Source of the DNA: Patescibacteria group bacterium
GTDB taxonomy: Bacteria > Patescibacteriota > JABMPQ01 > JAQVVF01
Reading direction: 5' to 3'
Assembly (NCBI GenBank): GCA_041662665.1
Contig: JBAZSC010000004.1
Span: 10,464-74,463, forward strand
DNA length: 64,000 nt
The translations under genes and the position numbers were made by a program. Positions 19,057-62,441 of this stretch are shown here, piece by piece. The notes under the pieces are model-generated. The model saw nothing but the letters and a program-made list of their open reading frames with translations, had not been told where the DNA came from and searched no databases. Within the stretch, counting starts at the first letter, position 1. Each line of letters opens with the position of its first letter.

Positions 19057-19075
19057 ATTTTTTTATTAAATAATA

Positions 19076-21023: not shown

Positions 21024-21162
21024 ATCAAGAATTATGATTAGAATTATGAATTACTGAATAACGATTTTTTTAATTTTCATAATTCTCAATTCAATATTCA
21101 AATCATCATTCATAATTCATCATTCATAATTCATAATTCATAATTCATAATTCATAATTCAC
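21010..21162. repeat. Imperfect inverted oligo-repeat (gaattatga / tcataattc words)
   Basis: gaattatgaatcaagaattatgattagaattatgaatt lies opposite (cataattcat)n x about 6. Confidence 0.6.
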
Positions 21163-24078: not shown

Positions 24079-24152
24079 ACTTTTTTATTAATTAGTAGTG
24101 ATATTCCTGCCTGATAACAGTCAGGTATAACAAAATTTGCGTAAATTCACAA

Positions 24153-26000
24153 TTATCTTCCGATTGCATAATATCTTTCCGAATAATTAAATGGCGAACT
24201 TAAATAAATCATAAAAGTATTTTTTTTAGTATTCGGCTTGACTTGCAAATCCGCCCATTCTCTTGATTCAGAATTATATAATTTTAGATAAAGATTTTTC
24301 TCTTTCAAACCTTTTACCTTTTTCTTTAAAGCCTTAAATTCTTTATTAGTATAAGAAAATACTAATTTTAATTTTACTGGTTTGCTAGAATTATATTTTT
24401 GATAATCAGTTTTAATTTTCCAATATTTCTTTATCAAATTATGCTTTGCGTCAACAAAAAGTTTCGTATACTTTTTTTGCCTCTCAACCAAAAAATATCT
24501 TTTTGTCTTTTTAAAACTTTTTGGAAATTTTTTGAAAGTCAAATTTAATTCTCTTGCATAATATTTTTTATTTTTTTTCTTGATTTTAACTTCATTCTTT
24601 TTCTTGGATTTTTTTGTTGTAAATTTTGGATTGCCAACATATTTAACAATTTGTGAAACAACATCTGATTCAGCATGCCAAGCATCTCTATATTTTACAT
24701 AAACAGTTTTCTTGCCTTTTTTTGCTGGCATTTTAAATGTCTTATCAGCCAAATAACTTTGCCAAGTTTTGTTTGAAAAATCAGATTTTGTTGACACAAT
24801 CATTTCGACCGGACTTTCAGTCAAAGAAGATGTAATATGAATTTTTCTATAAGCAGAATATTTACGTCCATAATTTATTTCTGTTATTTGATTTGAAGGA
24901 CCAGGAGTATTAGCAAGTTTTAATTTCTCGCTTGTCTGATCATAATATGCGATATAGGCTCTGTTTTTTGAATCCACATCCAAAGATGGATAACCAACAA
25001 CATCGCTGTCATTCAAAGTATTTTTTACAAAAGAATCAGTTACATTGCTCATATAGCCTATCCAATTTCCTCCTCCAACTGTTCCGCCATAATAACTTAA
25101 ACGAACCTTATTATCAGAATCTAAAGCTAAAGAATTATTAAATGCTGTAAAATCAGGCAAGATTTCACTATCCATATCGCTTATCGTCCAATTACTGTCT
25201 GCCGTTGTTTTAGTCGCATATTTAAGCGTCGTATTAGGATTAGCTAAATACAAATAAGCCAAATGTGCTGTATTATTGCTATCAAACTTCAAAGAATTAA
25301 AATAACCAGTTCTATAAGTACTATCAATCGCGCTCAATACCCAACTGCCGGAAACATTAGTCGCATATTTCAAATAATCATTTGTCCCTTCAAAATAAGC
25401 AATATGAACTTTATTATTAGAATCAATAGCCAGAGAATTAAACGTTCCACTATTATCAACCGTATCCAAAGTCTCATAAACCCAATCACCAGTAACATTA
25501 GTCGCATATTTCAAATGATCATTAGTACCATCATAATAAGCAATATGCGCCTTATTATTTGAATCCAAGGCTAAAGACGGATATGAACCAGCTTCAATTG
25601 TCGGATCTAAAATTGTTACTTGCCAAGAACCAGAAGCATTAGTCGCATACCGCAATTGATCTTCAATCATAGCATAATAAGCCAAATAAAAATTATTATT
25701 AGAATCAACTGCCGAAGAAATAAATAATCCTGCATAAAGAGTATCATCAACAGTCTGTTGCTCCCAAGCCCCAGAAGCATTTGTAGCATACTTTATTTTA
25801 TGATCAGTATTATCAAAATAACCAATATAAATCTTATCATTACTGCCAACTTTTAAAGAAACAACAGCCGCACCTTCTGACACCATTGGCACGTTTCCCA
25901 TATCAGCCACATCGCTAAAAACCCAATCAGCAGCCTTAACATTTTGGCCAAAAATAAACAAAGTAAAAACAACAATCAAAATTAACAATCCTTTTTTCAT
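24153..26000 (-). CDS. Secreted repeat protein, paralog 2 of 6
   Basis: Same architecture: signal peptide, 7 repeats, beta module after the TPGPS linker, and a lysine-rich C-terminal domain ending RYYAIGR. Confidence 0.8.
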   Translation of the reverse strand: MKKGLLILIVVFTLFIFGQNVKAADWVFSDVADMGNVPMVSEGAAVVSLKVGSNDKIYIGYFDNTDHKIKYATNASGAWEQQTVDDTLYAGLFISSAVDSNNNFYLAYYAMIEDQLRYATNASGSWQVTILDPTIEAGSYPSLALDSNNKAHIAYYDGTNDHLKYATNVTGDWVYETLDTVDNSGTFNSLAIDSNNKVHIAYFEGTNDYLKYATNVSGSWVLSAIDSTYRTGYFNSLKFDSNNTAHLAYLYLANPNTTLKYATKTTADSNWTISDMDSEILPDFTAFNNSLALDSDNKVRLSYYGGTVGGGNWIGYMSNVTDSFVKNTLNDSDVVGYPSLDVDSKNRAYIAYYDQTSEKLKLANTPGPSNQITEINYGRKYSAYRKIHITSSLTESPVEMIVSTKSDFSNKTWQSYLADKTFKMPAKKGKKTVYVKYRDAWHAESDVVSQIVKYVGNPKFTTKKSKKKNEVKIKKKNKKYYARELNLTFKKFPKSFKKTKRYFLVERQKKYTKLFVDAKHNLIKKYWKIKTDYQKYNSSKPVKLKLVFSYTNKEFKALKKKVKGLKEKNLYLKLYNSESREWADLQVKPNTKKNTFMIYLSSPFNYSERYYAIGR

Positions 26001-26050
26001 TATTTTATTTTAATTAACTTTTAACTTTAGATTTTAGACTTTTAACTCAC

Positions 26051-27895
26051 CTATCTGCCGATAGCATAATATCTTTCCGAATAATTAAATGGCGAATTTA
26101 GATAAATAATAAAAGTATGATTAGTTGTATCAGGTTTAACTTGTAAATCAGCCCAACTATCAGATTCAGAAACATAATATTTCAGATGCAAATTCTTTTC
26201 TTTTAATCCTTTAACTTTCTTTTTCAAAACTTTGAATTCATCGCTAGTATACTGAAATACTAATTTTAATCTAACTTGCTTGCTTCCTGTATATTTATTA
26301 AAGTCAGTATTTACTTTCCAATATTTTTTTAACAAATTGTGCTTTGCATCTGCAAAAAGTTTTGTGTATTTTAATTGTCTTTCAATTAGAAAATATCGCT
26401 TTGTATTTTTGAATTTAGTTGGATATTTTTTGAATTTAAGCTTTAGATCTCTTGCGTAATAAGTTTTATTCTTTTCTTTAACTTTCACTTCATTAGATTT
26501 CCTTGCTTTTTTTGTTACAAACTTTATTGGATTGCCAGTATATTTTACTTCTTGAGAAACAACATTAGATTCAGCATGCCAAATATCTCTGAATTTCATA
26601 TAAACAGTATTTTCACCTTTTTCTGATGGCATTCTAAATGTTGTATCAGCTGAATATGTTTTCCAAGTTTTATCTGAAAAATCAGATTTTGTTGAAACGA
26701 TCATTTCTGTTGGAGTTCCTGCAACTGTTGATTTTATATTAATATTTCTTGTTGCTGAATAATTTCTACCATTATTTATTTCAGAAGAAGTGATACTTGG
26801 ACCAGGAGTGAAAGCATAATTCAAATCATTATCAGTAGTATTATAATATGAAATATGAATACGATTATTTGAATCTACGTCAAGTGAAATTTGATTATAG
26901 TATCCAAATAATACCACTATGTATGATCCAACATTATCAATCACATTATATGTCCATGACCCTGAAGTATTAGTTGCATACTTTAATTGTTGCTCAGTAA
27001 CATCATAATAACCAATATGTACACCATTATTGTTATCAACAGCTATCGAAGTATTATATCCTGCTTGATTTGCCGTATCCAAATTCGTTGCAACCCAAAC
27101 ACCAGTAGAATTAGTAATGTATTTCAAATCTAAATTTGTAGCATCTAAATAACTAATATGGATGCTATTGTTAGTCCCAATCGCCAAAGAAGAATACCAT
27201 CCAGCCTCAACTGAATTATCTAAAGTACTTGTTGACCAAACACCAGACAAACTATTCGTCGCATATTTTAGAGTACTATTAGTTTCATCACGATAACTAA
27301 TATGCGCAAACCCATTTGAATCAATACCAAGCGAATTAAAAATGCCCACATCACCAACTGAATCAACTGTTGTCAACACCCAAGAACCGGTTGCATTAGT
27401 TGCATATTTTAAATCACTATTAGTTGAATCATAATAGCTAATTTGAACCGCATTATTTGCATTCAATACTATTGATGTATTATTTATATCAAAAATACCT
27501 ACTGTAATAGTACCTGAATTATCAACAGTTGTAGCAACCCAAGAACCAGAAGCATTTGTGGCATATTTCAAATTACTATTAGTATCATCAATATAACTAA
27601 TATGAGATTTGTTATTACTATCAATTGCTATTGAAACACCTTCGCCTACGTTTCCTGCACTATCTACAGTTGTAATAGCCCACGAACCTGACTCATTTGT
27701 TATATATTTCAAATCATTAGTACCAACTTCAAAATAAGCAATATGCACAAAGCCATTATGATCAACAGCAATCGCATTATCAGCGCCAGTATTTACAGCA
27801 TCGATTGAAGATTTCTGCCAATCCGCAGCCTTCACATTTTGGCCAAAGATAAACAAACCAACAATGGCCAGACAAATTAATAAATACTTCCGCAT
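26051..27895 (-). CDS. Secreted repeat protein, paralog 3 of 6
   Basis: Same architecture; ends RYYAIGR. Confidence 0.8.
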   Translation of the reverse strand: MRKYLLICLAIVGLFIFGQNVKAADWQKSSIDAVNTGADNAIAVDHNGFVHIAYFEVGTNDLKYITNESGSWAITTVDSAGNVGEGVSIAIDSNNKSHISYIDDTNSNLKYATNASGSWVATTVDNSGTITVGIFDINNTSIVLNANNAVQISYYDSTNSDLKYATNATGSWVLTTVDSVGDVGIFNSLGIDSNGFAHISYRDETNSTLKYATNSLSGVWSTSTLDNSVEAGWYSSLAIGTNNSIHISYLDATNLDLKYITNSTGVWVATNLDTANQAGYNTSIAVDNNNGVHIGYYDVTEQQLKYATNTSGSWTYNVIDNVGSYIVVLFGYYNQISLDVDSNNRIHISYYNTTDNDLNYAFTPGPSITSSEINNGRNYSATRNINIKSTVAGTPTEMIVSTKSDFSDKTWKTYSADTTFRMPSEKGENTVYMKFRDIWHAESNVVSQEVKYTGNPIKFVTKKARKSNEVKVKEKNKTYYARDLKLKFKKYPTKFKNTKRYFLIERQLKYTKLFADAKHNLLKKYWKVNTDFNKYTGSKQVRLKLVFQYTSDEFKVLKKKVKGLKEKNLHLKYYVSESDSWADLQVKPDTTNHTFIIYLNSPFNYSERYYAIGR

Positions 27896-27951
27896 AATTT
27901 TTTTGTTTTAAATTTTTAAATTTCTGAAACTAAATTTATATAAATTATATA

Positions 27952-29802
27952 TTATTTACCAATTGCATAATATCTTTGCGAAAAATTAAACGGAGATTTC
28001 AAATAAACCGTAAAAGTATTTTTCTTTGTATTGCGTTTAGCTGACAAATTAGTCCACTTTTTTGATTTCAAATTATATGCTTTTAGATATAAATTCTTTT
28101 CTTTCAACCCTTTTACTTTTTTCTTTAATTTTTTAAATTCTTTTTTAGAATATGAAAATACTAATTTTAATTTAACATTCTTACTTAATTTATATTTTGA
28201 AAAATCAGTATTAATTTTCCAATATTTTTTTAACAAATTATGCTTTGCATCCACAAAAAGTTTTGTAAATTTCTTTTTTCTCACAACCAAAAAATATCTT
28301 TTTGTTTTTTTAAAAGCTTTTGGATATTTTTTGAAAGTCAAATTTAATTCTCTAGCATAATATTTTTTATTTTTCTTTTTAATCCTTACTTCATTTTTTT
28401 TCTTCGCTTTTTTTGTAACAAACTTTGGATTACCGACATATTTGACATTAAAAGATACAACAGCAGATTCAGCACTATAGACATCTCTAAATTTAACGTA
28501 AATTGTTTTTATGCCTTTTTTTGAAGGCATTTTAAAAATCGTATTAGCCAAATAACTGCTCCAAATCTTATTAGAAAAATCAGACTTTGTCGAAACAATC
28601 ATTTCAGTAGGACTGCCAGAAACTGAAGATGCAATATTAATTTTTCTATAAGCTGAATAATCCCTTCCATTATTTATTGTTATTGTTTGAACTGAAGGTC
28701 CAGGAGTATAAGTATAATTCAAACTAGTATTAACTAAACCAGCACTAGTTTTAAAATAAATAACATGTGTTCGATTCATTGAATCTATTCCTAACGATAT
28801 TGGACGATAATATGCATTAAAAGTTTCAAAAGAAAACAAAAGACTGTACGATCCAGTATCCTGTTGATTATAAATTGACCATTGTCCAGAAACATTTGTC
28901 GCGTATTTTAATCTGCCATTTAAAATATCATGATAAGCAACATGCAATTTATTATTATCATCAATTTTTAATGAAGGATAATAGCCCACTTGACCTGCAC
29001 TGTCATTATCAATAACACTTGCAACCCATGCTCCTGAAATATTAGTAATATATTTTAAATCAGAGTTAGTATAATCCAAATAAGCAATATGAATTTTATT
29101 ATTTGAATCAATCGCTATGGAAGACTGAAGACCTACCGATCCATTAGAATCTAAAACTACAGATAGCCAAGAACCACTATCATTAGTAATATATTTTAAA
29201 TCGGAATTAGTAGTATCACGATAAGAAATATGCACCTTATTATTTGAATCCAATGCCAAAGAAGAACTACCTCCAACATCAGTACTAGAATCTATTGTTT
29301 CATTTGCCCATGAACCAGACACGTTTGTCGCATATTTCAAATTGCTATTATCTGAATCATAATAGCTTACATATATTTTTTTATTTCCATCCAAAGCCAT
29401 TGATACTTGTCCCAAGCCAATAGTTCCACTATTATCAATTATCTCGAAAACCCATGTTCCATTAACATTATTCGCATATTTTAACCAATCATTCGTTCTA
29501 TCTTCATAAACAATATATACTTTTCCATTAACATCTATTCCCAAAGAAGAATTACCAACATTAACAGAGTTATCAACAATTTCTGCCATCCAAGTACCAG
29601 AAGAATTAGTCGCATATTTCAAATCAGAATTAGTATTATCAAAATAACTAATATGAACTTTGTTATTTTGATCAATTGCTAATGCATTAACACTTCCAGC
29701 AGATGCCTCCAATTCCTGCGACTGCCAATCAGCAGCCAAAACATTTTGGCCAAACAGAAACAGACCAACAATGGCCAGACAAATTAATAAATACCTCCGC
29801 AT
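27952..29802 (-). CDS. Secreted repeat protein, paralog 4 of 6
   Basis: Same architecture; the 7 repeats are counted explicitly; ends RYYAIGK. Confidence 0.8.
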   Translation of the reverse strand: MRRYLLICLAIVGLFLFGQNVLAADWQSQELEASAGSVNALAIDQNNKVHISYFDNTNSDLKYATNSSGTWMAEIVDNSVNVGNSSLGIDVNGKVYIVYEDRTNDWLKYANNVNGTWVFEIIDNSGTIGLGQVSMALDGNKKIYVSYYDSDNSNLKYATNVSGSWANETIDSSTDVGGSSSLALDSNNKVHISYRDTTNSDLKYITNDSGSWLSVVLDSNGSVGLQSSIAIDSNNKIHIAYLDYTNSDLKYITNISGAWVASVIDNDSAGQVGYYPSLKIDDNNKLHVAYHDILNGRLKYATNVSGQWSIYNQQDTGSYSLLFSFETFNAYYRPISLGIDSMNRTHVIYFKTSAGLVNTSLNYTYTPGPSVQTITINNGRDYSAYRKINIASSVSGSPTEMIVSTKSDFSNKIWSSYLANTIFKMPSKKGIKTIYVKFRDVYSAESAVVSFNVKYVGNPKFVTKKAKKKNEVRIKKKNKKYYARELNLTFKKYPKAFKKTKRYFLVVRKKKFTKLFVDAKHNLLKKYWKINTDFSKYKLSKNVKLKLVFSYSKKEFKKLKKKVKGLKEKNLYLKAYNLKSKKWTNLSAKRNTKKNTFTVYLKSPFNFSQRYYAIGK

Positions 29803-29874
29803 AATTTTTTTGTTTTTATTCCACCAAAGTTCCGCAGAACGTAGGTGGATTAATTTTTAAAAACTTAAAATAAA

Positions 29875-31686
29875 CTATTTTATTCCAATCCCAAAAGTCC
29901 TTTTGCTAAAAGAAATTGGAGAATCAATTATTAAAGTAAAAGTTCTCTTTTTTAAATTTAAAGTTGCAAATGAATTTTTCCACTTTTTCTTTAATTTATT
30001 GTAATATAATAATTTCAAATCACTTTGTTTTAATGTCTTATTATTCTTTTTTAATTTTTTGAATTCTTTTTTAGAATAATTAAAAGTCACTTTTAATCTG
30101 AAATTATTCTTGGCTTTTTTATAAGTATATTTATTTAAATCATCTGTCACTAGCCAATATTTTTTTAATAGCTTATTTTTGTCTATTTTCTTAAAATAGT
30201 TACTGAATAATTTTGATTGAACAAAATATTTTTCTTTTTTTAAATTTTTTGGATATTTTGTCATTACAAAATTCAAATCTCTCGCAGAATAAACCTTGCC
30301 TTGCTTTTTCAACAAAACTTCATTAACTTTTCTAGCCTTTTTTGTTACAAATTTTGGATTTTTAATGTATCTAATTGTCTTTGTTAAAGCACCTGATTCA
30401 GCAAACCATTGATCTCTGAAATTGACATAAACTGTTTTTGTTCCATCAACTTTTGATAAAGTAAAAATCTTTGATGTATCATAAGCTTCCCAATTTGCAT
30501 TTGCAAAATCAGCATTTTCAGAAATTATCATTTCAGTTGGACTGCCTGCTGAAGATAAAGACAATGCTACTGTTCTTAAGGCAGTATATGCTTTATTAGA
30601 ATTAATCTTTAAACTTGTATTTGTTGGTCCCATAGAAGCAGCGTATTTTAAATCGCCATTTGTATGATCCTGATAAGCAATATGAATTCTATTTAGATCA
30701 TCAACCTTAATTGAAGTTTGAAAACCTAAAATTAAAGTATCGCTTCCTTGATCAACAATATATTTCTGAAAGGTTCCTGAAATATTTGTCGCATATTTCA
30801 AAGAATAATTTGGATAACCATCATGATAACTAATATGAGCATAATTATTTTTATCCAAGCTCAAACTAGAAAACATTCCAGTCAATCCTCCTGCTAAAAC
30901 TGCAGTATCAATTGTTGTTTTCTGCCAACTTCCAGATAAATTTGTAATATATTTCAAAGCTTGCACTCCGCCATCATAATAGCTAACATGCACTTTATTA
31001 TTTGTATCAACAGCAATTGAAGAATATTGTCCAACTCCTCCATTATCAATTGCTGAGCTTAAAAAAGATCCTGATTCATTTGTTGCGTATTTTAACCATT
31101 GATTACTGCTATCATAATAGCTAATATGAGCTTTGCCATTTGAATCAACTGCAATTGATGTATTGCTTGTAGAAGATAATGTTTCTACATCGTAGAAAAA
31201 CCAAGTTCCAGATGACTTGATTGCATATCTAACTTTTGATCCATTATAATAGCTAATATTCAATCGATCACTTGAATCAATCGCCATATCCACAAAAGTC
31301 CCGCCCAAAGCATCTAAAACAGAATTTCCCCAATTTCCTCCAGCATTTGTGGCATATTTCAAATCATCATTTACAGCATCATAATAAGCAATATGAATTT
31401 TGTTCGCTGAATCAACCACTAAAGAAGGATAAAGCCCAACCATTACTGAACTCTCGTCAATTATCGTAATTTGAAAACTGCCAGAACTATTAGTCGCATA
31501 TTTTAATTTACCATCACCAAGATATGCAATATGAACATATCCTAACGAATCAACACTAATTGATGTTCCATCTCCAGCAAAACCAGTTGCATCAACTGTT
31601 GTTTTTTGCCAATCTGCTGCCAACACAGTATGACCAAACAACATCAGGCAAAACATTGCCACCAAAATTAATAATTTCTTTTTCAT
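29875..31686 (-). CDS. Secreted repeat protein, paralog 5 of 6 (more divergent)
   Basis: Signal peptide, LKYATN repeats, beta module and a lysine-rich tail ending FGIGIK. Confidence 0.75.
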   Translation of the reverse strand: MKKKLLILVAMFCLMLFGHTVLAADWQKTTVDATGFAGDGTSISVDSLGYVHIAYLGDGKLKYATNSSGSFQITIIDESSVMVGLYPSLVVDSANKIHIAYYDAVNDDLKYATNAGGNWGNSVLDALGGTFVDMAIDSSDRLNISYYNGSKVRYAIKSSGTWFFYDVETLSSTSNTSIAVDSNGKAHISYYDSSNQWLKYATNESGSFLSSAIDNGGVGQYSSIAVDTNNKVHVSYYDGGVQALKYITNLSGSWQKTTIDTAVLAGGLTGMFSSLSLDKNNYAHISYHDGYPNYSLKYATNISGTFQKYIVDQGSDTLILGFQTSIKVDDLNRIHIAYQDHTNGDLKYAASMGPTNTSLKINSNKAYTALRTVALSLSSAGSPTEMIISENADFANANWEAYDTSKIFTLSKVDGTKTVYVNFRDQWFAESGALTKTIRYIKNPKFVTKKARKVNEVLLKKQGKVYSARDLNFVMTKYPKNLKKEKYFVQSKLFSNYFKKIDKNKLLKKYWLVTDDLNKYTYKKAKNNFRLKVTFNYSKKEFKKLKKNNKTLKQSDLKLLYYNKLKKKWKNSFATLNLKKRTFTLIIDSPISFSKRTFGIGIK

Positions 31687-31763
31687 GATTTTCCCTCGTC
31701 CGCCATGCTTCTTCGCTTAAGCGAAGAGCGAAGGCGGATATTAAATAGTAATTATTTTAAAAT

Positions 31764-33614
31764 TTATTTTTTTCCTATTGCATAATAAATTTCATTCCAA
31801 GATATCGGCGAAATCAAAGTGATAGCAAATGTCCTATTTTTCACAGAATGTACGGCATTTAAATTATGCCATTTCTTTTCTTTAACATTATAATATTTTA
31901 AAACCAAACTACTTTCTGACAAACCTTTATTTCTATTTTTTAAAGTCTTGAATTGCTTTTTTGTATATTTAAAAACAAATTTAGTTTTAAAATTATCAGC
32001 TAATTTATATTTATTAAAATTACCTTTTATTTTCCAATATTCTTTAATCAAATTTTTCTTGGCTGCAATATAAGTTTTTGAATATTTTCTATATCTTTTT
32101 ACTTGCCAAGAATATTTTGCTTTTTTCAAACCTTTTGGCAATTTCAAAAATTTTAAATAAAATTTTTGAGCAGTATATTTTTTATTTTTCTTTTTTATTA
32201 AAATTTCTTTGCTTTTTGCATTTTTTGTTACAAAAGTTGGATTTGGCAAATATTTAATTGAATCAGAAACAGTTGCTGATTCCGCATACCATTGATCTCG
32301 AAATTTTACATAAATAGTCTTTTTGCCAACCCTAGAAGACATTTCAAAAACTTTATTCACATTATATGTTTCCCATTCTGCTCCAGCAAAAGTAGAATAT
32401 TCAGACAACATCATTTCTGTTGGATTGCTAGTTGCAGATAAAACCAAATCAACATCTTTAAAATTTGTATATTTTTTACCTGCTTCTATTACAACTTCTG
32501 GACTTATTGGACCAAGTACATCAGCAAATTTTACTTCACCATCCCAAGGAGAATAAGTATGCAGATAAAATAGACCAACGTAAAGTCTGTTTGAAGAATC
32601 CATAGCCAAAGAAATTGGCTGTTCAGCTGTATGAATTGCATCTCCAATATCACTAACAGCTACAGTTGAAAAACTTGTCCCAACATTATTTGCCAGCTTA
32701 AAATCAAAGTTATCCACATCATAATATCCAATTCTTACTCTTGAATTGCTATCAACTACTAGAGAAGAATATATTCCAACATCTCCAGCAGTATCAACTG
32801 TCGAATTTGACCAATAGCCCAACATATTATTTGCGTATTTCAAATCTCGATTCCCGCGATCATAATAACTAATATGAACGAAATCACTATCGTCAATTTT
32901 TATTGAACTAAACTCACCAACATTACCGCTATCAACGGTTTGAGCCACAAAATTTCCAGAAGAATTTGTAATATATTTTAAAGATAGATTTGCCGAATCA
33001 TAATAACTGATATGGACTTTATTGTAATCATCAACAGTTAATGAAGAAAATAGTCCGACAAAAGTACTACTGCTATCTATTGTTGATAATGTAAAACCAG
33101 TTCCATTAGAATTTGTTGCGTATTTTAAATCGTCATTTGTTAAATCATAATAACTAATATGCACATAACCTAATGAATCAACACCAATCGAATCATACAT
33201 ACCAACTTCGCCTGTTGTATCAATTGATGATGCTGCCCACACTCCAGAAGCATTAGTCGCATATTTCAAATCAGAATTAGCATAATCATAATAACTAACA
33301 TGCGCCTTATCATTATAATCTATTGCAATTGATGGATACTGTCCCAAACCAGAACCAAGATCAATTGTTTCACTCACAAAACTGCCAGATGCGTTTGTTG
33401 CATATTTTAGATAATAAGTTGCACCAGTTGTCTCTAAATAAACCAGATGCGCTTTGCTATTTGAATCCAAAGCAATTGCCACAATAGGACCAACACCTAC
33501 TCCTCTCGACAATGACTCAAATTGCCAATCCGATGCCTTTGCTTGACCAAAAAAACAAAAGACACAAGACAACGTTGCAAAAACCACTCCTAAAATTAGA
33601 GATTTTTTTCTCAT
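31764..33614 (-). CDS. Secreted repeat protein, paralog 6 of 6 (more divergent)
   Basis: Signal peptide, LKYATN repeats and a lysine-rich tail ending YYAIGKK. Confidence 0.75.
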   Translation of the reverse strand: MRKKSLILGVVFATLSCVFCFFGQAKASDWQFESLSRGVGVGPIVAIALDSNSKAHLVYLETTGATYYLKYATNASGSFVSETIDLGSGLGQYPSIAIDYNDKAHVSYYDYANSDLKYATNASGVWAASSIDTTGEVGMYDSIGVDSLGYVHISYYDLTNDDLKYATNSNGTGFTLSTIDSSSTFVGLFSSLTVDDYNKVHISYYDSANLSLKYITNSSGNFVAQTVDSGNVGEFSSIKIDDSDFVHISYYDRGNRDLKYANNMLGYWSNSTVDTAGDVGIYSSLVVDSNSRVRIGYYDVDNFDFKLANNVGTSFSTVAVSDIGDAIHTAEQPISLAMDSSNRLYVGLFYLHTYSPWDGEVKFADVLGPISPEVVIEAGKKYTNFKDVDLVLSATSNPTEMMLSEYSTFAGAEWETYNVNKVFEMSSRVGKKTIYVKFRDQWYAESATVSDSIKYLPNPTFVTKNAKSKEILIKKKNKKYTAQKFYLKFLKLPKGLKKAKYSWQVKRYRKYSKTYIAAKKNLIKEYWKIKGNFNKYKLADNFKTKFVFKYTKKQFKTLKNRNKGLSESSLVLKYYNVKEKKWHNLNAVHSVKNRTFAITLISPISWNEIYYAIGKK

Positions 33615-33796
33615 TATTTTTGTTTTTTATTTTAATAAATTTTAATTACTGATATCTTAACATTTTTTTACCTATTTAACAAAAAAGCTATCCACTGCCA
33701 AAATTTACATTATGCCAATAATAATGTATAATAAAATTAATCAAATATCATTTTTAAAAACAGAATTAAAATTAGAAAAAGTATTTGCATTATTTG

Positions 33797-33836
33797 CATA
33801 TTCGCAATATTTGCATAAATTCGTATATTTGTATTA
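33797..33836 (+). promoter_or_regulatory. Conserved about 40-nt promoter-like block ending at the hsp20 start codon (candidate leaderless promoter: TTCGCA-17-TATATT)
   Basis: catattcgcaatatttgcataaattcgtatatttgtatta is near-identical (1 mismatch) to the block upstream of ruvB and is related to the block upstream of ferredoxin. Confidence 0.5.
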
Positions 33837-34846: not shown

Positions 34847-34871
34847 TACCCTAAACAAAAGGAGAACCGAA

Positions 34872-37073: not shown

Positions 37074-37189
37074 ACAAGAATACAAATCTACAAATAACGC
37101 TAATCTACGAATATACGAATCGTCGTATTCGCATATTCGCTATATTGGCATTATTCGTATATTCGTATTTTACCCAACAAAAAACTGTA

Positions 37190-37465: not shown

Positions 37466-37505
37466 TATATTCGCAACATTTGCATAAATTCGTATATTTG
37501 TATTA
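37466..37505 (+). promoter_or_regulatory. Conserved about 40-nt promoter-like block upstream of ruvB
   Basis: gtatattcgcaacatttgcataaattcgtatatttgtatta ends 5 nt before the ATG at 37511. Confidence 0.5.
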
Positions 37506-37510
37506 CATAA

Positions 37511-39395: not shown

Positions 39396-39518
39396 TTTGG
39401 CAGAAGAATCTTGAATCTAGAATTTGGAATCTAGAATGAATAATGAATTTAGAATACAGAATTCTCGATTCTAAATTCCAAATTCTATTCCAGATTCTAG
39501 ATTCCAGATTCTATATTC
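39396..39518. repeat. Inverted oligo-repeat element (gaatctagaat words)
   Basis: ttgaatctagaatttggaatctagaatg is paired with cagattctagattccagattctat. Confidence 0.6.
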
Positions 39519-39526
39519 TAATTTTT

Positions 39527-40570: not shown

Positions 40571-40582
40571 AACAAATTTTAA

Positions 40583-40618
40583 ACTAATTTTCCGACGCTC
40601 TGACGTTCTGACGCTCTG
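40583..40618. repeat. 8-nt tandem microsatellite, about 4 units of CTCCGACG/GACGCTCT
   Basis: tccgacgctctgacgttctgacgctctg. Confidence 0.7.
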
Positions 40619-40620
40619 AT

Positions 40621-40648
40621 TTTCCGAAATAAAAAAGAGCCCATTAGG
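40621..40648 (-). terminator. Terminator of island gene A
   Basis: The minus-strand RNA forms agaguccuaaugggcucu followed by U6. The identical sequence recurs at 41431-41458. Confidence 0.65.
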
Positions 40649-40666
40649 ACTCTATAAAAAAGAGCT

Positions 40667-41203
40667 TCAGTTCATCTTCATCCTGTAAGCTTCACAAACC
40701 TTGAAAGTCAGACTTCCCCGAAAATCATAATAGTTGGTAGCACGCTTGCCATTTCCATTCACTGGCAAGTTTTCATAATCGTAAAAAGTTGAATCGTCAA
40801 TGTGACTCAACGAAATCTTTCGAGCCATTTTGCGATTCACATTGATTGCAGTCATCATTCGACCCTTGTATCGCTTCGGCCGATGTCCACCGATCAACCG
40901 CTCAGCGCGACGATTGTCTTCACCAACCTTCACGCCAACAGTCAACAGATGACGCCGCCTCAAGTTCGAATAAGGAGTGCCATTCCCACGTTCACCATGA
41001 TGTTTTCCAGTCCCGGCAACAGGCTTGCCCCGAACCGGATCTCTCATCCATTCCATCACATTCTTCTTCTCTTCACGCTTCCTTTCCACTTGCTTTCGCA
41101 CTTCTTCGTCATACGACATCCTGTTCTCAATTTCTCTTCTCTGATAGTCTCTGTCAGCAGTATTCTTGTTTGCAACACAAGCAGTATCTCGATGAATGCC
41201 CAT
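40667..41203 (-). CDS. Island protein A, hypothetical (AGTGKHHG-motif family)
   Basis: Start reassigned to the ATG at 41203, preceded by ggagggaaagag (SD). The ORF-track N-terminal extension (TTG start at 41311) contains the sigma70 promoter. The product is charged and R/K/E-rich. Confidence 0.6.
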   Translation of the reverse strand: MGIHRDTACVANKNTADRDYQRREIENRMSYDEEVRKQVERKREEKKNVMEWMRDPVRGKPVAGTGKHHGERGNGTPYSNLRRRHLLTVGVKVGEDNRRAERLIGGHRPKRYKGRMMTAINVNRKMARKISLSHIDDSTFYDYENLPVNGNGKRATNYYDFRGSLTFKVCEAYRMKMN

Positions 41204-41273
41204 CTCTTTCCCTCCACGCGCCTGTTTTTCCAGGCTGTTCGTCCCTCCACGACACCAGAAAACAGAATAAAAC

Positions 41274-41301
41274 ATTATATCACAACCATATAATTTGTCA
41301 A
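41274..41301 (-). promoter_or_regulatory. Canonical sigma70-type promoter of island gene A (TTGACA-N16/17-TATAAT)
   Basis: The minus strand reads ttgacaaattatatggttgtgatataat. Confidence 0.65.
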
Positions 41302-41378
41302 GATTTTTCAATATTTAAGCTTATTTAAAACAAAAAAACTACAAACATTTCCGAAAATCTGACAATCAGAAGCTCAGA

Positions 41379-41428
41379 AGTCTGACGCTCCGACGCTCCA
41401 ACGCTCCGACGTTCCCACGTTCCCAAAT
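41379..41428. repeat. 8-nt tandem microsatellite (CTCCGACG)n, about 6 units
   Basis: gtctgacgctccgacgctccaacgctccgacgttcccacgttccc. Confidence 0.7.
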
Positions 41429-41430
41429 AA

Positions 41431-41458
41431 AAAAGAGCCCATTAGGACTCTACAAAAA
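41431..41458 (-). terminator. Terminator of island gene B (identical to that at 40621-40648)
   Basis: aaataaaaaagagcccattaggactct. Confidence 0.65.
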
Positions 41459-41477
41459 GGTACAAATTACAAATAGT

Positions 41478-42248
41478 TCAATCGAATACAACTGGTACGA
41501 ACCCACCCTGATTGTGCCAAGGCATATGCTCTCCCATCGCAAATCCGAAAGGATCTTCAAACCGACGATCTTCCAGATCCTCAATCTTTGGAACCTTCCA
41601 ATTCGAACTCCGATCTGTAACAACTCGATTCAGCTTAGGATCGAACATTCTGAATTGAAGCCCATCTTGACTGAAAAGATCCGCATTGAAATGGATTCCT
41701 CCATTCCTATCTTCTGCATCTTCATCTTCATCATGTTCATCAAACTGCTCAAAACTCTTCCCATCAGAAGAATTGTCATCATCTTCACAATCGTCTTCAT
41801 CCTTATCATTCACATCATCAGCACAAATGTAAGCAACAGCCGGTTCAGGCACATCGTTGATAGTCTTTTTCTTTGAAATGGCCACAAGTTCCTCAATCGT
41901 AACCTGATGCTCTTCCCTGAATTGCCGATCGATCTCAGCTTCCCATTCCTGAATGGTCGAATCATCAGCTTCACTCAAAGTCATCTTCCTCAAAACCAGA
42001 TCACGATGTTCACTTTCCATATCATGCACACCCTTCGGCTGTTTCGTTCCAATCAACCTTGTTCCACACTTCAAACGAATTGTACAAGTTGATTCACCTT
42101 GTCCAGAATCACCATGATGCTTTCCAGTTCCAGCAATTGGAAAACCCCTTTCCGGAGCAATGTAAGTTCGCTTCTCCCCTTTCTCTGCAAGTTCGTTCAG
42201 CCTCATCGTATGATAAACACGCTTCTGATCCTTGGACAACCGAGCCAT
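41478..42248 (-). CDS. Island protein B, hypothetical paralog of A (AGTGKHHG motif) with a long poly-acidic tract
   Basis: Start reassigned to the ATG at 42248, preceded by gcggagggaaagagaa (SD). Shares RGFPIAGTGKHHGDSGQG and RLIG with protein A. Contains the acidic stretch DDVNDKDEDDCEDDDNSSD...DEHDEDEDAED. Confidence 0.6.
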   Translation of the reverse strand: MARLSKDQKRVYHTMRLNELAEKGEKRTYIAPERGFPIAGTGKHHGDSGQGESTCTIRLKCGTRLIGTKQPKGVHDMESEHRDLVLRKMTLSEADDSTIQEWEAEIDRQFREEHQVTIEELVAISKKKTINDVPEPAVAYICADDVNDKDEDDCEDDDNSSDGKSFEQFDEHDEDEDAEDRNGGIHFNADLFSQDGLQFRMFDPKLNRVVTDRSSNWKVPKIEDLEDRRFEDPFGFAMGEHMPWHNQGGFVPVVFD

Positions 42249-42372
42249 TTCTCTTTCCCTCCGCGCCACCAAAACTTCTTGTTTGGTGGTCGTTTTCCCG
42301 CTTTTTTCTCTTGCGGGTCCCATCGATCTCGTACCCAAAATAACATAGAACTAACCAGAAATATAGCATTTT

Positions 42373-42401
42373 ATTCTATCATTAAAAAATAAAAATGTCA
42401 A
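42373..42401 (-). promoter_or_regulatory. Sigma70-type promoter of island gene B (TTGACA-N17-TAGAAT)
   Basis: The minus strand reads ttgacatttttattttttaatgatagaat. Confidence 0.6.
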
Positions 42402-42467
42402 TAGAAATCAAAAATACCAACTTTTTGGCTTTAAAAAGACAAGAAAAATATCATAAATTTGAGTGGT

Positions 42468-42546
42468 GGCGTTCTGACGATCCAAAGCTCCCACGCTCCG
42501 ACGCTCCGAAAGTCCCACGCTCCGACGCTCCCACGTCCCACGTTCC
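42468..42546. repeat. 8-nt tandem microsatellite, about 9 units (CTCCGACG/CTCCCACG)
   Basis: gttctgacgatccaaagctcccacgctccgacgctccgaaagtcccacgctccgacgctcccacgtcccacgttccc. Confidence 0.7.
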
Positions 42547-42548
42547 CA

Positions 42549-42580
42549 AATAAAAAAATGGCATCAAAGCCATTAAATAA
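42549..42580 (-). terminator. Terminator of island gene C
   Basis: The minus strand forms aatggctttgatgccatt followed by T7. Confidence 0.6.
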
Positions 42581-42587
42581 AGAACAA

Positions 42588-42941
42588 CTACAACTTTTTT
42601 GCTTCTACTCTTCTTTCAATTTCTCGCCTTACAGCCGACAACACACCTTGAGGCATCAGCTTCGAATCAAAATTCGTCCAACGAAAAATTTCAAAACCTA
42701 CTTTGATTTCACCCAAAGCAATCACTTCTCTCGCAATTTCCAACCTTTTCTGCAAATAATCCAAATCTTCCTTTCTGCACCATCCTCTCCTTTCAAATCC
42801 AAATTCATCAAAACCCCAGTCTGCCAAAACATCATCTGGATGATCAAAAAAATCTGTTTTGTGATCACCCTCGAAAGGATAAAAAACAGTACCACGCCTA
42901 ACAAAAATATCATTCAATGCATACTTCCGACCCTTATCCAT
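42588..42941 (-). CDS. Island protein C, hypothetical 117 aa
   Basis: Strong SD aaaggagagg 5 nt from the ATG; a 7-bp GC hairpin in the leader. No recognisable domain. Confidence 0.55.
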   Translation of the reverse strand: MDKGRKYALNDIFVRRGTVFYPFEGDHKTDFFDHPDDVLADWGFDEFGFERRGWCRKEDLDYLQKRLEIAREVIALGEIKVGFEIFRWTNFDSKLMPQGVLSAVRREIERRVEAKKL

Positions 42942-42994
42942 TTCCTCTCCTTTGCCTGTCTCCCCCTTTTGACAGGCTTTTTTTGCACCTTAAA

Positions 42995-43022
42995 AGTATA
43001 TCAAAATTTTTCATAAAGTCAA
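42995..43022 (-). promoter_or_regulatory. Sigma70-type promoter of island gene C (TTGACT-N16-TATACT)
   Basis: The minus strand reads ttgactttatgaaaaattttgatatact. Confidence 0.55.
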
Positions 43023-43052
43023 TATTATATTATAATCATAATATCAAAACCC

Positions 43053-43081
43053 TTGACTTTAAATAAAAAAGATATTATAAT
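43053..43081 (+). promoter_or_regulatory. Sigma70-type promoter of island gene D (TTGACT-N17-TATAAT), divergent from the gene C promoter
   Basis: ttgactttaaataaaaaagatattataat, followed by the SD aagggggg 5 nt before the ATG at 43118. Confidence 0.6.
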
Positions 43082-43117
43082 CAACCGTTCGTTCTCTTGA
43101 CAACAAGGGGGGAAAAA

Positions 43118-43918
43118 ATGCCTCCATTCAGCCAAACAAGATTAAATATCAACAAAATGCTTTTTGAACGAAAATGGTTTCAAAATACTGATGCTAATAT
43201 CGTTCAAAAACTCTTCAATTTGCCTGAAGCTTGTAATGGTTTTTTGGAAGATCTAGCAATTCGTCCTGAACAAATTGGCAAATGGACACTTTCCAAAATC
43301 TCTGAAATCTTCATTCCATTCAATGAACGTGCCTGGAACATTTACATCGTTTTTGAAATCAAAAATCAGAATGATGAAATCAGTCATTTCCAATACCATT
43401 CTTGGCAAAAAGGACCTTCGTCTGGAGTCAAAGGCATTGTTTTGATCAAAGATAAGACTTCTGGAAAAATCTCACACTTTGTTTTATTACAAGGCTATAA
43501 ATTTGGAGCAGGAGTACTAACTTTCGATTGTATTGGTGGCTTTGCTGAAGATGGTGAAGAAAATGAAGCCGGAATGACACAACGATTCCGCACTGAAATG
43601 AAAGAGGAGCTGGGACTTCCAACCTTGCCTCCTCATCAAATTGTTTCTCTTGGCAGATTTAATCCAGATGCTGGGATTTCCAATAACAGACCTTTCTTGA
43701 TGGTTGCAATTGTTTCTTCTGAACATTTGCCATACATCGAAACATCAAATCTCCCTAATCCAAGCACATTTGAAAACGTTGCAAAAATCATTGTTCCAGT
43801 TTCCGAACTTGCAAGATTTGTTGACAATTGCGAAGACTCGTTCTTTCATGTCTGCATTACCAGACTTTTAGCCAAAGGCATTACTCTTTCCACCAGCCCC
43901 ATCTCAACTCACCCTTAA
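43118..43918 (+). CDS. Island protein D, hypothetical with a degenerate Nudix-like box in its C-terminal half
   Basis: GGFAEDGEENEAGMTQRFRTEMKEELGL approximates the Nudix box GX5EX7REUXEEXGU with a one-residue shift. Start at the ATG after the G-rich SD. Confidence 0.45.
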   Translation: MPPFSQTRLNINKMLFERKWFQNTDANIVQKLFNLPEACNGFLEDLAIRPEQIGKWTLSKISEIFIPFNERAWNIYIVFEIKNQNDEISHFQYHSWQKGPSSGVKGIVLIKDKTSGKISHFVLLQGYKFGAGVLTFDCIGGFAEDGEENEAGMTQRFRTEMKEELGLPTLPPHQIVSLGRFNPDAGISNNRPFLMVAIVSSEHLPYIETSNLPNPSTFENVAKIIVPVSELARFVDNCEDSFFHVCITRLLAKGITLSTSPISTHP

Positions 43919-43934
43919 GTGAGTTTTTTTATTC
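43903..43934 (+). terminator. Terminator of island gene D
   Basis: actcacccttaagtgagt followed by T7. Confidence 0.6.
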
Positions 43935-44101
43935 CTTGTCAACCGTAATGCCTTCAAAATTTAGTTTCAAAAATTAAGGGATTTAGAAAATAAGAAAATT
44001 AAAATAAATTCATATCATATTTTTAAGGCATGAAGGTTGAACAAAAAAATCGCAATAGCGATTTAATTTAGAGTTATTTAAATAAATAAAAGTTTATTTT
44101 T

Positions 44102-48146: not shown

Positions 48147-48258
48147 AAATCTCAAATTACAAACAAATCTCAAATCACAAAGATACAAACTTTAAATCCT
48201 ATTTTGTAATTTGTCTTTTGTAATTTGTTTGGAATTTGGAATTTGGAATTTTCGTAAC
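48147..48258. repeat. Long inverted repeat, caaattccaaa family, overlapping the 3' end of the 48192-49766 gene
   Basis: Left arm ctcaaattacaaacaaatctcaaatcacaaag; right arm gtaatttgtcttttgtaatttgtttggaatttggaatttggaatt. Confidence 0.7.
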
Positions 48259-49892: not shown

Positions 49893-50261
49893 TCACTTTC
49901 TCATCGTAAGTTTCAAAACAATAACTCCTCTTTCTTCATCATTTTTCAGACCAAAATGATCATCCTCACAAAATGTAAACCCATCCTTTCTATAACTTTC
50001 AATTACGGGAAAAAGCAACAACAATGTTTCAATGGTTATGCATATTCCTGATTTTAAATCGTCTTTGTCTTCATGAGTTTTAGGCAAAAAACCAATTTTC
50101 ACAAATGGCACTTCTAGATCTACTGATGTCACTTCAGGTTTGCATTCTAAATGAACAGTTCTAACGATACCGCCACCCAAAGTATCCTTTTCCATAAGAC
50201 ATATTAATCCAGATTTTTCTTTCGATTTATCATCTGAACGAACAACTACTATTTCTCCCAT
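49893..50261 (-). CDS. Hypothetical protein (SD-bearing, GC-richer)
   Basis: Start assigned to the ATG at 50261, preceded by aaaaggaggagaaa. The ORF-track start at 50333 lacks an RBS. Confidence 0.4.
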   Translation of the reverse strand: MGEIVVVRSDDKSKEKSGLICLMEKDTLGGGIVRTVHLECKPEVTSVDLEVPFVKIGFLPKTHEDKDDLKSGICITIETLLLLFPVIESYRKDGFTFCEDDHFGLKNDEERGVIVLKLTMRK

Positions 50262-50378
50262 TTTCTCCTCCTTTTCGCCTAGGACATAAAAAAGTACAAT
50301 AAAATATTTTACTAAATTAAAATACAAAGTCAATATTTAATTTCGTAATTTTCAATTTCGATAATTTAATCTATCTAA

Positions 50379-57941: not shown

Positions 57942-57960
57942 AGCCTCCTCTTCCTAAAAT

Positions 57961-58452
57961 TCAGGAAATCGCCGAACTGATTGTGTTAGCAAGATAACTA
58001 AAACGCATAGGCAACAAATAACTTCCTCTCGGATTTTTCGCAAGATGCTCTTTCGCCTCCATAATATGTAGAGTCCACACTGCAACACTCGGAACATTCA
58101 AGGGCTTTATCCATTCAATTAGCTCCTCAACGGAAATTGCATACTTCTTCCTCTCGCAAAAATAATTCGATAAATTAGGCAAAAATCGCCTATGACTATT
58201 ATGATTATCACGATCACTTGCGACAGCAAAATAAATGTTTCTCGAAGATTGCACATTTCTCACAATACCAAAACCGATCAATCCACAAGGTGACTTCACT
58301 GCATTTGTCCACTCAATAACCAGAATAGTTCCAGAACTAACAATTTCATTAACCGTATCATCAGTCAATAATCTTTCTAAAAATCCACGAACCGGCATTT
58401 CTTCTAAATGCAACATTACTTGTTCTGTTCCACCTTTAAACATCGTCACCAT
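57961..58452 (-). CDS. Hypothetical protein, paralog A2 (tandem paralog of 58490-58954)
   Basis: Start at the MVTMFKGG ATG at 58452, preceded by aaaaaggaggaagaca. Shares about 45% identity by eye with the upstream paralog. Confidence 0.55.
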   Translation of the reverse strand: MVTMFKGGTEQVMLHLEEMPVRGFLERLLTDDTVNEIVSSGTILVIEWTNAVKSPCGLIGFGIVRNVQSSRNIYFAVASDRDNHNSHRRFLPNLSNYFCERKKYAISVEELIEWIKPLNVPSVAVWTLHIMEAKEHLAKNPRGSYLLPMRFSYLANTISSAIS

Positions 58453-58489
58453 TGTCTTCCTCCTTTTTCCTATGAAAAGCAATCAAGAA

Positions 58490-58954
58490 TTATAATGCCG
58501 AATTAATTGGATAAATACAAAAACGCAATGGAAGAAAGCTATCACTACGACCAGAAGAAGATTGTTCTTTTGCTTCCATAATATGATACGCCCATATATC
58601 AGCTGCAGGAATATTCAATGGCTTTATCCAATCCATTAATTCATCAACAGAAATTCCGGTCATTTTCCTATCGCAACAAACTTTATTAATTGCAAAAAAC
58701 TTACCTTCTCCTTGATCCTTTGCACCAGCAAAAAATACATTTTTTGAAGTTTCCATATCTCGTAAAATTCCAAACCCAATCATTCGACAAGGCCTTTTTA
58801 CTGCACTCGTCCATTCCAAAACCAAGATAGTTCCATCACTAACAATTTGATCAACTACGTCATCTCTCAATAATTTCTCCAAAAATTCACGAACTGGCAT
58901 CTCTTCAAAACGTCTTTCCAATTCTTCTTCAGTCCCTTCAAACATTGTTACCAT
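58490..58954 (-). CDS. Hypothetical protein, paralog A1
   Basis: Start at the MVTMFEG ATG at 58954, preceded by aaaaggaggagaaaagaca. Conserved blocks EEMPVR.FLE.LL.DD, GTILV.EWT.AVK.PC..IGFGI and HIMEAKE. Confidence 0.55.
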   Translation of the reverse strand: MVTMFEGTEEELERRFEEMPVREFLEKLLRDDVVDQIVSDGTILVLEWTSAVKRPCRMIGFGILRDMETSKNVFFAGAKDQGEGKFFAINKVCCDRKMTGISVDELMDWIKPLNIPAADIWAYHIMEAKEQSSSGRSDSFLPLRFCIYPINSAL

Positions 58955-59110
58955 TGTCTTTTCTCCTCCTTTTCTGCGAACGATAATTTTTAAAGAGCAT
59001 TTTTCAATATATAATAAACTGAACAAAAAAACAAGACTAAAACCTTGTCTTTGTGTAACTACAAATTTTAGATTGCCAAAAGGCTTAAGTAAGATTAAAA
59101 TAACAATATT

Positions 59111-59198
59111 GGAGAGGTGCCAGAGAGGCCGAATGGGCTGGTCTCGAAAACCGGTATGCCCGAAAGGGCATCGTGGGTTCGACTCCCACCCTCTCCGC
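59111..59198 (+). tRNA. tRNA-Ser (anticodon CGA)
   Basis: GGAGAGG acceptor stem; anticodon loop CTCGAAA; long variable arm GTATGCCCGAAAGGGCATC; T-arm GTGGGTTCGACTCCCAC; discriminator G. Confidence 0.85.
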
Positions 59199-59310
59199 CT
59201 TCGCCCGCCGAAGCTTTAGCAAAAGCGAAGGCGGGATAGTCAAATACACGAATCAATGTTTCTGTTTTTTCTAATTCACGGGCGGGCTTCGGCGGACAAA
59301 GTCCGTTAAG
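59196..59310. repeat. GC-rich palindromic elements (CCGCC-GAAG...GAAG-GGCGG family) abutting the tRNA-Ser 3' end
   Basis: cccgccgaagctttagcaaaagcgaaggcggg and cgggcgggcttcggcggacaaagtccg. Confidence 0.6.
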
Positions 59311-59385
59311 AAATATTAATTTTAACTTAAATAAAAAATTATCCATACAAATCCGCGTGTAATCCGCATTAATCCGCGCGTAAAA

Positions 59386-62349: not shown

Positions 62350-62441
62350 CCCTTTCTCCTCCTTTTCGAAGTTCTAAATATTTTGTTGTAACAAAGAACG
62401 AATTATTATAAGATAATATGAATATTAATTAAAGTCAAATC

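Follow-up and report, generated by a model that had tools for sequence, protein, structure and literature searches.

Partial use of Shine-Dalgarno (SD) sequences is known in prokaryotes, as in cyanobacteria and Mycoplasma and in the leaderless-rich Actinobacteria and archaea. The ribosomes of Bacteroidia (Flavobacterium johnsoniae) are SD-blind, with bS21, bS18 and bS6 sequestering the anti-SD (Jha 2021, PMC7797042; McNutt 2023, PMC9976891; Naeem 2026, PMC13000453). In these bacteria SDs occur less often than expected at random, an extended SD survives on rpsU only, where it serves autoregulation (PMC7797042, PMC9976891, PMC13000453), and the start regions are adenine-rich and 'Kozak-like' (Baez 2019, PMC6847099). 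Within the Candidate Phyla Radiation (CPR, Patescibacteria), lineages differ in the presence of an anti-SD and bS21 is often absent from Parcubacteria (PMC9297842). Here, we analyzed a stretch of 64,000 nucleotides (nt) from a Patescibacteria group bacterium (contig JBAZSC010000004.1, named the window), in which a minority of genes, including the focal gene p122, is preceded by strong SDs (SD-led genes) and the majority is not (SD-less genes). On balance, we think it rather probable that two modes of initiation coexist in this lineage, and that the strong-SD class is inherited and selected and its SDs are used by the host ribosome.

Each gene was scored by the pairing energy of its positions -22 to -3 with an assumed canonical 16S rRNA tail (GAUCACCUCCUUUCU), and mock-SD controls after McNutt et al. 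were made from three mock windows and random 20-nt windows. The energies of the 57 genes delimited in the window are bimodal: 46 genes are weaker than -4 kcal/mol, and a separate group lies at -9 to -13 kcal/mol. This distribution agrees with an earlier note on this DNA, which had split the window into an SD-less majority and a strong-SD minority. After the starts in an island at 40.6-43.9 kb were re-annotated, the SD-led group comprises 11 of the 57 genes, with GGAGG-type sequences placed 5-10 nt ahead of the start. Before this re-annotation, energies of -11 kcal/mol or lower were reached by 7 of 56 genes, compared with 0-1 of 56 in the mock windows and 0.64% of the random windows (binomial P = 8e-8). 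The median energy within the window is -1.0 in the true SD position and -1.9 to -2.5 in the mocks, and this weaker median indicates that SD-like sequence is avoided ahead of ordinary genes. The lack and under-representation of SDs in the window data, together with the upstream adenines described below, resemble the situation in Bacteroidia. A genome with a minority of SDs also falls inside the variation known for partial-SD prokaryotes; unlike in those, the distribution here has two sharply separated modes and hardly any sites between them, and the SD-led class is a coherent, conserved accessory set.

The 15-mer GAAAAGGAGGAGAAA occurs exactly three times in the window, each time shortly before an ATG, and the three genes concerned are p122, a MazG-like gene and p154. 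When up to two mismatches are allowed, four matches are found against 0.42 expected, a number reached in 0 of 100 shuffles. The start context of p122 reads gcGAAAAGGAGGAGAAA-ATG, and the motifs and coordinates named earlier for 49893-50261, the MazG-like gene and the tRNA-Ser operon stand as written; absent from that list were the SD-led genes at 12025-12402 (-) and 42588-42941 (-) and the downstream starts of two island paralogs. Across the clade, SD cores (GGAGG, or GGGGG, GGAG, AGGA) are present in all 30 SD-led start regions with pairing energies (dG) of -9 to -17 kcal/mol against GAUCACCUCCUUUCU, and the spacer between core and start is 5-10 nt in 29 of them. The SD-led start choices match independent gene calls on public contigs, island internal starts included, and agree with the N-termini of orthologues. 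The SD-led proteins are short, with 88-266 amino acids (aa) compared with a median of 353 aa for the SD-less genes, and are mostly clade-restricted.

Contigs from relatives share synteny with the window, and the MazG-like gene, p125, PadR and the p154 family stand at matching positions in them. Syntenic SD-led genes were found in the genomes represented by loci L003, L005/L010/L089, L009/L091 and L090, and the identity of ValS is 82-85% inside this genus-level cluster and at most 65% beyond it. The SD of the p125 family is kept in four of four genomes, the orthologues in L089, L090 and L091 all carrying AGAGGAGG with dG of -12.3 to -12.8 kcal/mol. The MazG-like gene keeps its SD in four of four close genomes (orthologues in L003, L009 and L010) and PadR in three of three (orthologues L003_91 and L005_99), the p154 family is SD-led in four of four (orthologues in L003 and L005), and two more small-protein families by the tRNA-Ser in relatives are likewise SD-led. 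The alignment upstream of the MazG-like gene shows a variable leader, with an insertion of about 50 nt in one species, followed by a conserved AAAGGAGG. The genes yidC, jag, rnpA, ABC-F, gap, gdh, pilB, valS, tsaD and other neighbours are SD-less in every relative. At the level of sequence comparison, these data show that the SDs of most class members have evidently been passed down vertically and maintained in related species by purifying selection, and SDs under such selection would be used by the host ribosome. The presence of a few genes with exceptionally strong SDs conserved across species is shared with Bacteroidia, and the analogy suggests that SD use may be a gene-specific device rather than the default. 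Unlike in Bacteroidia, the phylum here is Patescibacteria, the SD-led genes are many in place of one per genome, and they are non-ribosomal (the MazG-like enzyme, the PadR operon and small orphan proteins) in comparison with rpsU.

The SD of the MazG-like gene extends well beyond the close relatives. In 13 of 18 Patescibacteria species this gene has a dG of -9 kcal/mol or lower, compared with 39 of 257 other genes (15%; Fisher P = 4e-7), and with the distant species only, a strong SD is found in 9 of 14 MazG-like genes against 25 of 157 other genes (P = 2e-4). The usage of SDs ranges from 0 to about 40% of genes among the Patescibacteria loci sampled, and at the loci with no strong SD at all (L007/L014 and L024) the site of the MazG-like gene is degenerate.

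The 46 SD-less start regions have a composition of their own, with A at 54-65% over positions -6 to -3, T at about 60% at -2 and -1, and G at 0-13% over -15 to -1; the adenine enrichment is a measure of base composition in these regions and not of expression. Besides the genes given in Table 1, yidD, rnpA, hsp20, the ABC-F gene and a five-paralog array belong to this set. The earlier note took such genes to be possibly leaderless, a suggestion that did not hold up against the promoter motifs. Most extended -10 boxes (TGnTAnAAT) in the window and close relatives are located 23-52 nt ahead of the start, with 4 of 38 within 11 nt, and this spacing points to a short leader rather than to leaderless transcripts; in 7 of the 46 SD-less window genes, a -10-like hexamer ends 6-7 nt before the ATG. 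By default, the SD-less genes thus seem to have leaders that are short, unstructured and A/U-rich, and few leaderless transcripts, which sets them apart from the genes of leaderless-rich lineages.

The leader of gap (6045-6092, -) has an arrangement of its own. The gene had been described as lacking a ribosome-binding site (RBS), which is true of its own start; 38 nt upstream, however, AAGGAGGGG is followed after 6 nt by a GTG-started upstream open reading frame (uORF) of 10 codons (VFLLFKKEFL). The uORF ends in a TGA that shares bases with the gap ATG (ATGA), an overlap suggestive of translational coupling, and the arrangement is missing from the gap leaders of the relatives L090 and L091. 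As for the SD-led leaders, masking of the SD by hairpins was not detected, shuffled leaders giving no higher unpaired probability for the SD (combined P = 0.18), and sequestration of a thermosensor or riboswitch-like kind was rejected on the same accessibility. A canonical -35/-10 promoter as a mark of the SD-led class was suggestive (about 4 of 8 versus about 4 of 46) and was not relied on; one -35 box of these promoter candidates coincides with the valS start codon on the opposite strand.

Based on these observations, we propose a working model with two routes. In the default mode, which would serve about 80-90% of genes, mRNAs would be loaded via short, unstructured leaders that are rich in A/U and poor in G, have adenines at -3 to -6 and lack an SD. 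In the minority mode, an (A/G)A(A/G)AGGAGG core placed 5-10 nt before the start would form 8-9 base pairs (bp) with the canonical CCUCCUUU tail at about -12 to -13 kcal/mol, compared with 9-13 bp and -14 to -21 kcal/mol for Bacteroidia rpsU. The minority class comprises the phylum-wide MazG-like nucleoside triphosphate (NTP) pyrophosphatase, the PadR operon by the tRNA-Ser, p125, the cupin gene, the orphan p122 and the four-gene island. The 16S rRNA of the clade would keep a CCUCCUU(U) anti-SD, and its pairing with the SD would set the 30S subunit on SD-led mRNAs and position the start codon. The SD-led class would thereby have its own initiation route, and probably a control point, apart from the bulk proteome; speculatively, its members (a regulator, a nucleotide-pool enzyme and short proteins) could be a separately controlled accessory or stress set. 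Anti-SD loss as reported for Parcubacteria concerns the same superphylum and would explain both the dominance of SD-less genes and the varying SD usage between Patescibacteria loci, in a study that examined rRNA and ribosomal proteins and not mRNAs (PMC9297842). Such loss predicts no functional SDs, whereas the clade studied here keeps SDs under selection, which argues that it belongs to the anti-SD-retaining part. The sequestration of the anti-SD in Bacteroidia also depends on bS21, a protein often absent from Parcubacteria (PMC9297842). The window encodes none of bS21, bS18 and bS6, and the related loci likewise contain no rpsU.

Several points weigh against the coexistence of two modes in this form. 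No 16S rRNA gene lies in the window or in 25 related loci (about 270 kb), and the anti-SD is assumed rather than seen. Tsurumaki et al. (2022, PMC9297842) found an anti-SD in only 48% of Parcubacteria, so it may well be absent in this clade, too. The close relatives form one genus-level cluster, and their orthologue counts are not independent events; the SD-led fraction of 17% in the clade sample overestimates the genome-wide value, since the loci were fetched around SD-led genes. Set against synonymous-codon shuffles, 114 kb of clade coding sequence is depleted in AGGAG (55 observed, 99.9 expected; z = -5.5) and in GGAGG (55 observed, 78 expected; z = -3.3), and no such deficit is seen for GAAGG, AAGGG and CCTCC, the controls of equal composition. 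For many 5-mers unrelated to the SD the deficit is larger still, so the depletion is not specific and hints only weakly at a working anti-SD. Finally, the island is clearly atypical and the seven SD-led genes outside it are slightly GC-richer than the SD-less genes (mean 0.348 versus 0.310, P = 4e-4), and older transfers into the SD-led set may have taken place.

Composition leads directly to the question of origin, since the earlier note regarded the SD-dependent set as laterally acquired. In its full form, this explanation makes the SD-led genes recently acquired foreign DNA with donor RBSs, their SDs being functionless or poorly used relics in an SD-independent genome. The island fits it best: as had been stated for 40580-43935, this segment is both SD-bearing and compositionally odd, with a GC of 0.38-0.46, four SD-led genes and its own repeat family (octamers of GACGCTCC type in tandem between the genes), and it also has AAATAAAAAAGAGCCCATTAGGACTCT after two of its genes and a duplicated terminator-like module. 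In its atypical GC, own repeats and uniformly SD-led genes it resembles genomic islands that retain donor signals. Another candidate is a transketolase gene in L089 (GCA_964574655.1, 18912-21299, -), SD-led and with a GC of 0.41, which stands beside the DHH gene in this one relative and is missing at that position in the window and two other relatives; it is likely a recent acquisition that arrived with its SD. The island and this transketolase probably entered by transfer, perhaps from SD-using Patescibacteria. The GC excess of the SD-led genes overall, the tRNA-Ser adjoining the operon, the lack of p122 at a distant Wzy locus and the canonical TTGAC(A/T)-N16-17-TAnAAT promoters, which are commoner at SD-led genes, point in the same direction. 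For the set as a whole, however, acquisition was not borne out. The orthologues of p125, the MazG-like gene, PadR and p154 are syntenic and SD-led in 3-4 species, and they keep their GGAGG SDs while leaders and intergenic DNA diverge; relic SDs would decay, so their retention speaks against the relic reading. The GC of 35-47% given earlier for SD-bearing genes holds for the island (38-46%) and not for the other seven (32-38%), whose GC3 (GC at third codon positions) is not significantly different from that of SD-less genes (0.26 versus 0.22, P = 0.055). The MazG-like family is native to Patescibacteria, with 99 homologues of 41-79% identity that, where named, belong to Patescibacteria, Parcubacteria or Paceibacterota. 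No donor was found for p122, for which a search of 5.8 billion proteins returned p122 itself only, or for the p154/p163 family, which has four representatives among 1.8 billion cluster representatives; with an orphan and a nearly unique family, no SD-using donor is identifiable. Furthermore, the IMG/VR viral contigs contain no relatives of the MazG-like protein, p154, island256 or p266, and Pfam, PHROG and NCBIfam scans of the window proteins gave no integrase or transposase; a phage origin was rejected, the PHROG matches being only weak and of unassigned function. Most SD-led genes are thus unlike those of donor-signal islands in being syntenic and conserved, without integrases or viral relatives. 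Transfer is not what defines the SD-led class, and its wholesale derivation from foreign DNA is unlikely.

The purine-rich element could also be read without ribosomal pairing, as the site of a regulator (a CsrA-like protein or a small RNA) or as a generic purine enhancer in a clade whose anti-SD might be missing, the genes then forming a post-transcriptional regulon. The limited detection of anti-SDs in Parcubacteria cited above (48%, PMC9297842), the identity of a 15-mer at three unrelated genes over a length greater than SD pairing needs, the purine-rich tract on both flanks of GGAGG and the inclusion of a PadR regulator in the set are compatible with this explanation. The part conserved among orthologues, however, is the GGAGG core with the A/G upstream, an exact complement of CCUCCUU(U), while the flanks vary; the distance to the start is canonical (5-10 nt) in 29 of 30 cases, SD-like pentamers are depleted within genes, and the MazG-like SD is degenerate where loci show no strong SD (L007/L014 and L024), as expected of a joint loss of SD and anti-SD. 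Collectively, these features make a regulator site very unlikely. An equally small chance is given to the SDs being merely needed for longer or more structured leaders or for GC-richer starts, so that the class would reflect mRNA architecture with no regulatory meaning. Promoter-like sites do lie 36-70 nt upstream of SD-led genes, compared with leaders of about 16-45 nt inferred for SD-less genes, and the SD-led genes are GC-richer, but around the SD their leaders show no significant excess of structure over shuffles. Internal operon genes of the SD-less class have no SDs whereas every gene of the PadR operon has one, and across species the class is limited to small accessory proteins and the MazG-like enzyme. 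Chance, or coincidental purine runs before wrongly annotated start codons, might be suspected because the SD-led start is internal to the longest open reading frame (ORF) in two island paralogs and two genes of relatives and several starts were chosen by hand. The excess over random windows (P = 8e-8), the 0-1 counts in the mocks, the independent gene calls that choose the same SD-led starts and the agreement of orthologue N-termini leave this explanation next to no probability.

A more far-reaching form of the two-mode reading supposes that the 16S tail is normally unavailable or little used and that the conserved SD-led genes form a translational regulon, which would come into play only once the anti-SD is exposed, for instance by altered ribosomes in starvation, dormancy or host contact. 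We consider it quite unlikely; if true, specialised-ribosome control would have evolved a second time independently, here with a multi-gene, non-ribosomal output in a lineage often without bS21.

The CPR (Patescibacteria) account for a large share of bacterial diversity and have reduced and unusual ribosomes, and the way in which these select mRNAs is essentially undescribed. In the full-text literature, we found one paper touching the CPR anti-SD and none on SD usage in CPR mRNAs. A two-class system with a conserved SD-led class would offer a concrete handle on CPR initiation, and flags a small set of conserved uncharacterised proteins and the phylum-wide MazG-like enzyme as likely under separate translational control. 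Gene calling in CPR metagenome-assembled genomes is affected as well, as taking the SD into account led to a different start codon in at least four genes. The presence of an SD in an SD-poor genome is also unsafe as evidence of horizontal transfer.

Table 1 Features of the 64,000-nt window discussed in the text, with the SD or motif and its pairing energy where given.
Feature	Position	Strand	SD or motif	dG (kcal/mol)	Remarks
p122, focal gene, 122 aa	49893-50261	-			SD-led; ATG at 50261; between GT4 glycosyltransferase and Wzy-type gene
SD of p122	50262-50276	-	GAAAAGGAGGAGAAA	-12.4	GGAGG core, 5-nt spacer
Promoter-like site	50306-50333	-	TTGACT-N16-TAAAAT		44 nt upstream of p122 ATG; consensus match only
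MazG-like NTP pyrophosphohydrolase, 231 aa	61654-62349	-			SD-led; Pfam MazG; 8 invariant Cys
SD of MazG-like gene	62353-62367	-	GAAAAGGAGGAGAAA	-12.9	8-nt spacer
p154	58490-58954	-			SD-led; first gene of tRNA-Ser-adjacent operon
SD of p154	58960-58974	-	GAAAAGGAGGAGAAA	-13.2	10-nt spacer
p163	57961-58452	-	AAGGAGG at 58459-58465	-12.2	SD-led; p154 paralog (52% identity)
PadR-family regulator, 88 aa	57672-57938	-	GAGGAGG at 57944-57950	-12.6	Pfam PadR; last operon gene
tRNA-Ser(CGA)	59111-59199	+			Flanks SD-led operon
p125	12025-12402	-	AGAGGAGG at 12411-12418		SD-led; small gene divergent from valS
Cupin_2 protein, 124 aa	34872-35246	+	AAAAGGAG at 34857-34864	-9.3	Weaker SD; GTG start; second of gene pair
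GC-richer island	40580-43935			-9.6 to -11.4	Four SD-led genes; GC 0.38-0.46
Island gene, 178 aa	40667-41203	-			SD-led
Island gene, 256 aa	41478-42248	-			SD-led; paralog of 178-aa gene
Island gene, 117 aa	42588-42941	-			SD-led
Island gene, 266 aa	43118-43918	+			SD-led
SD-less majority, 46 genes	1-64000				Includes gap, gdh, pilB, valS, tsaD, tsaE, ruvB, queA, yidC

Among the SD-led products, p122 has no match in Pfam, PHROG or NCBIfam, and its AlphaFold2 single-sequence model is uninformative, with a predicted local distance difference test score (pLDDT) of 36. A search for p122 in relatives via its Wzy neighbour led to two distant short contigs, and in L094 GT4 is directly followed by Wzy with no gene at the position of p122. 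The AlphaFold2 model of the MazG-like protein has a pLDDT of 93, and its best solved-structure folds are iMazG, DR2231 and DCTPP1. Judging from the alignment, the family seems to be built of two helical halves with a CxxC...CxC cluster after each, and EExxD occurs only in the C-terminal half; Pfam MazG matches only this half, and by eye the N-terminal one might represent a MazG repeat that has degenerated. The tRNA-Ser(CGA) adjoins the small-gene cluster in L009 and L010 as well. An 83-aa ORF of 46% GC (59095-59346, -) that overlaps this tRNA is almost certainly spurious. For the island proteins no homologous family was found; the 178-aa and 256-aa paralogs are charged proteins sharing a GTGKHHG motif, and the 266-aa protein has by eye a Nudix-box-like stretch with no Pfam match.

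The host is a low-GC member of the Patescibacteria, with a GC of about 30% across the window except for 35-43% at 40-44 kb. A placement in Bacteroidetes, which the SD-less, A-rich starts had suggested, was rejected on the short YidC, Jag/KhpB and the archaeal-type ValS and Gdh, and on the assignment of the source to Patescibacteria at NCBI. The majority of the 57 genes could be annotated, and two tRNAs, the sole matches of an Rfam scan, and zero rRNA genes are present. The housekeeping genes comprise gap, a PfkB kinase, ogt, an M23 peptidase, tsaD, valS, pilB/gspE, gdh, ferredoxin, a DHH phosphoesterase, tsaE and PrsW. The window further encodes hsp20, VanW, ruvB, queA, a PRC-barrel protein, Jag/KhpB, a short YidC, YidD, rnpA, a transglutaminase, ABC-F, SfLAP, a DNA-alkylation repair enzyme, and a polysaccharide cluster with Wzy, PMT_2, VTT, GT4 and a flippase. 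ValS (12495-15044, +) and Gdh (17281-18585, -) score best against archaeal-type models, and DPANN archaea and Methanocella are represented among the homologues that share about 50-55% identity with ValS, which agrees with the known gene sharing between CPR and archaea. The five-paralog array (22030-33614, -) encodes proteins of 603-682 aa each with signal-peptide-like N-termini, and an OmpL47-type barrel domain is present in one of them; the start of the member at 29875-31686 reads GAGGGAAAATC-ATG, an SD-like sequence of intermediate strength with a dG of -7.2 kcal/mol.

Intergenic regions of the window are crowded with short tandem repeats of period 7-8, often made of only three bases (for example at 20400-20448, 21008-21161, 39405-39521, 48203-48251, 10791-10891 and many other sites). 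Their units include TTCATAA x12.6 just upstream of PrsW, TTTGGAA x7, GAATTAT x7.6 and AATTCTA x9, and relatives carry similar repeats with other units, as upstream of yidC in L005 and of gdh in L089. These repeats could be spacers, protein-binding arrays or a means of keeping leaders unstructured. An upstream block, (AAATTCG)TATATTTGTATT, is common to hsp20, ruvB and the ferredoxin gene and is preceded by TATTCGCA-type repeats; its sites (33782-33835, 37126-37169, 37485-37510 and 19057-19100) could represent a common promoter or operator.

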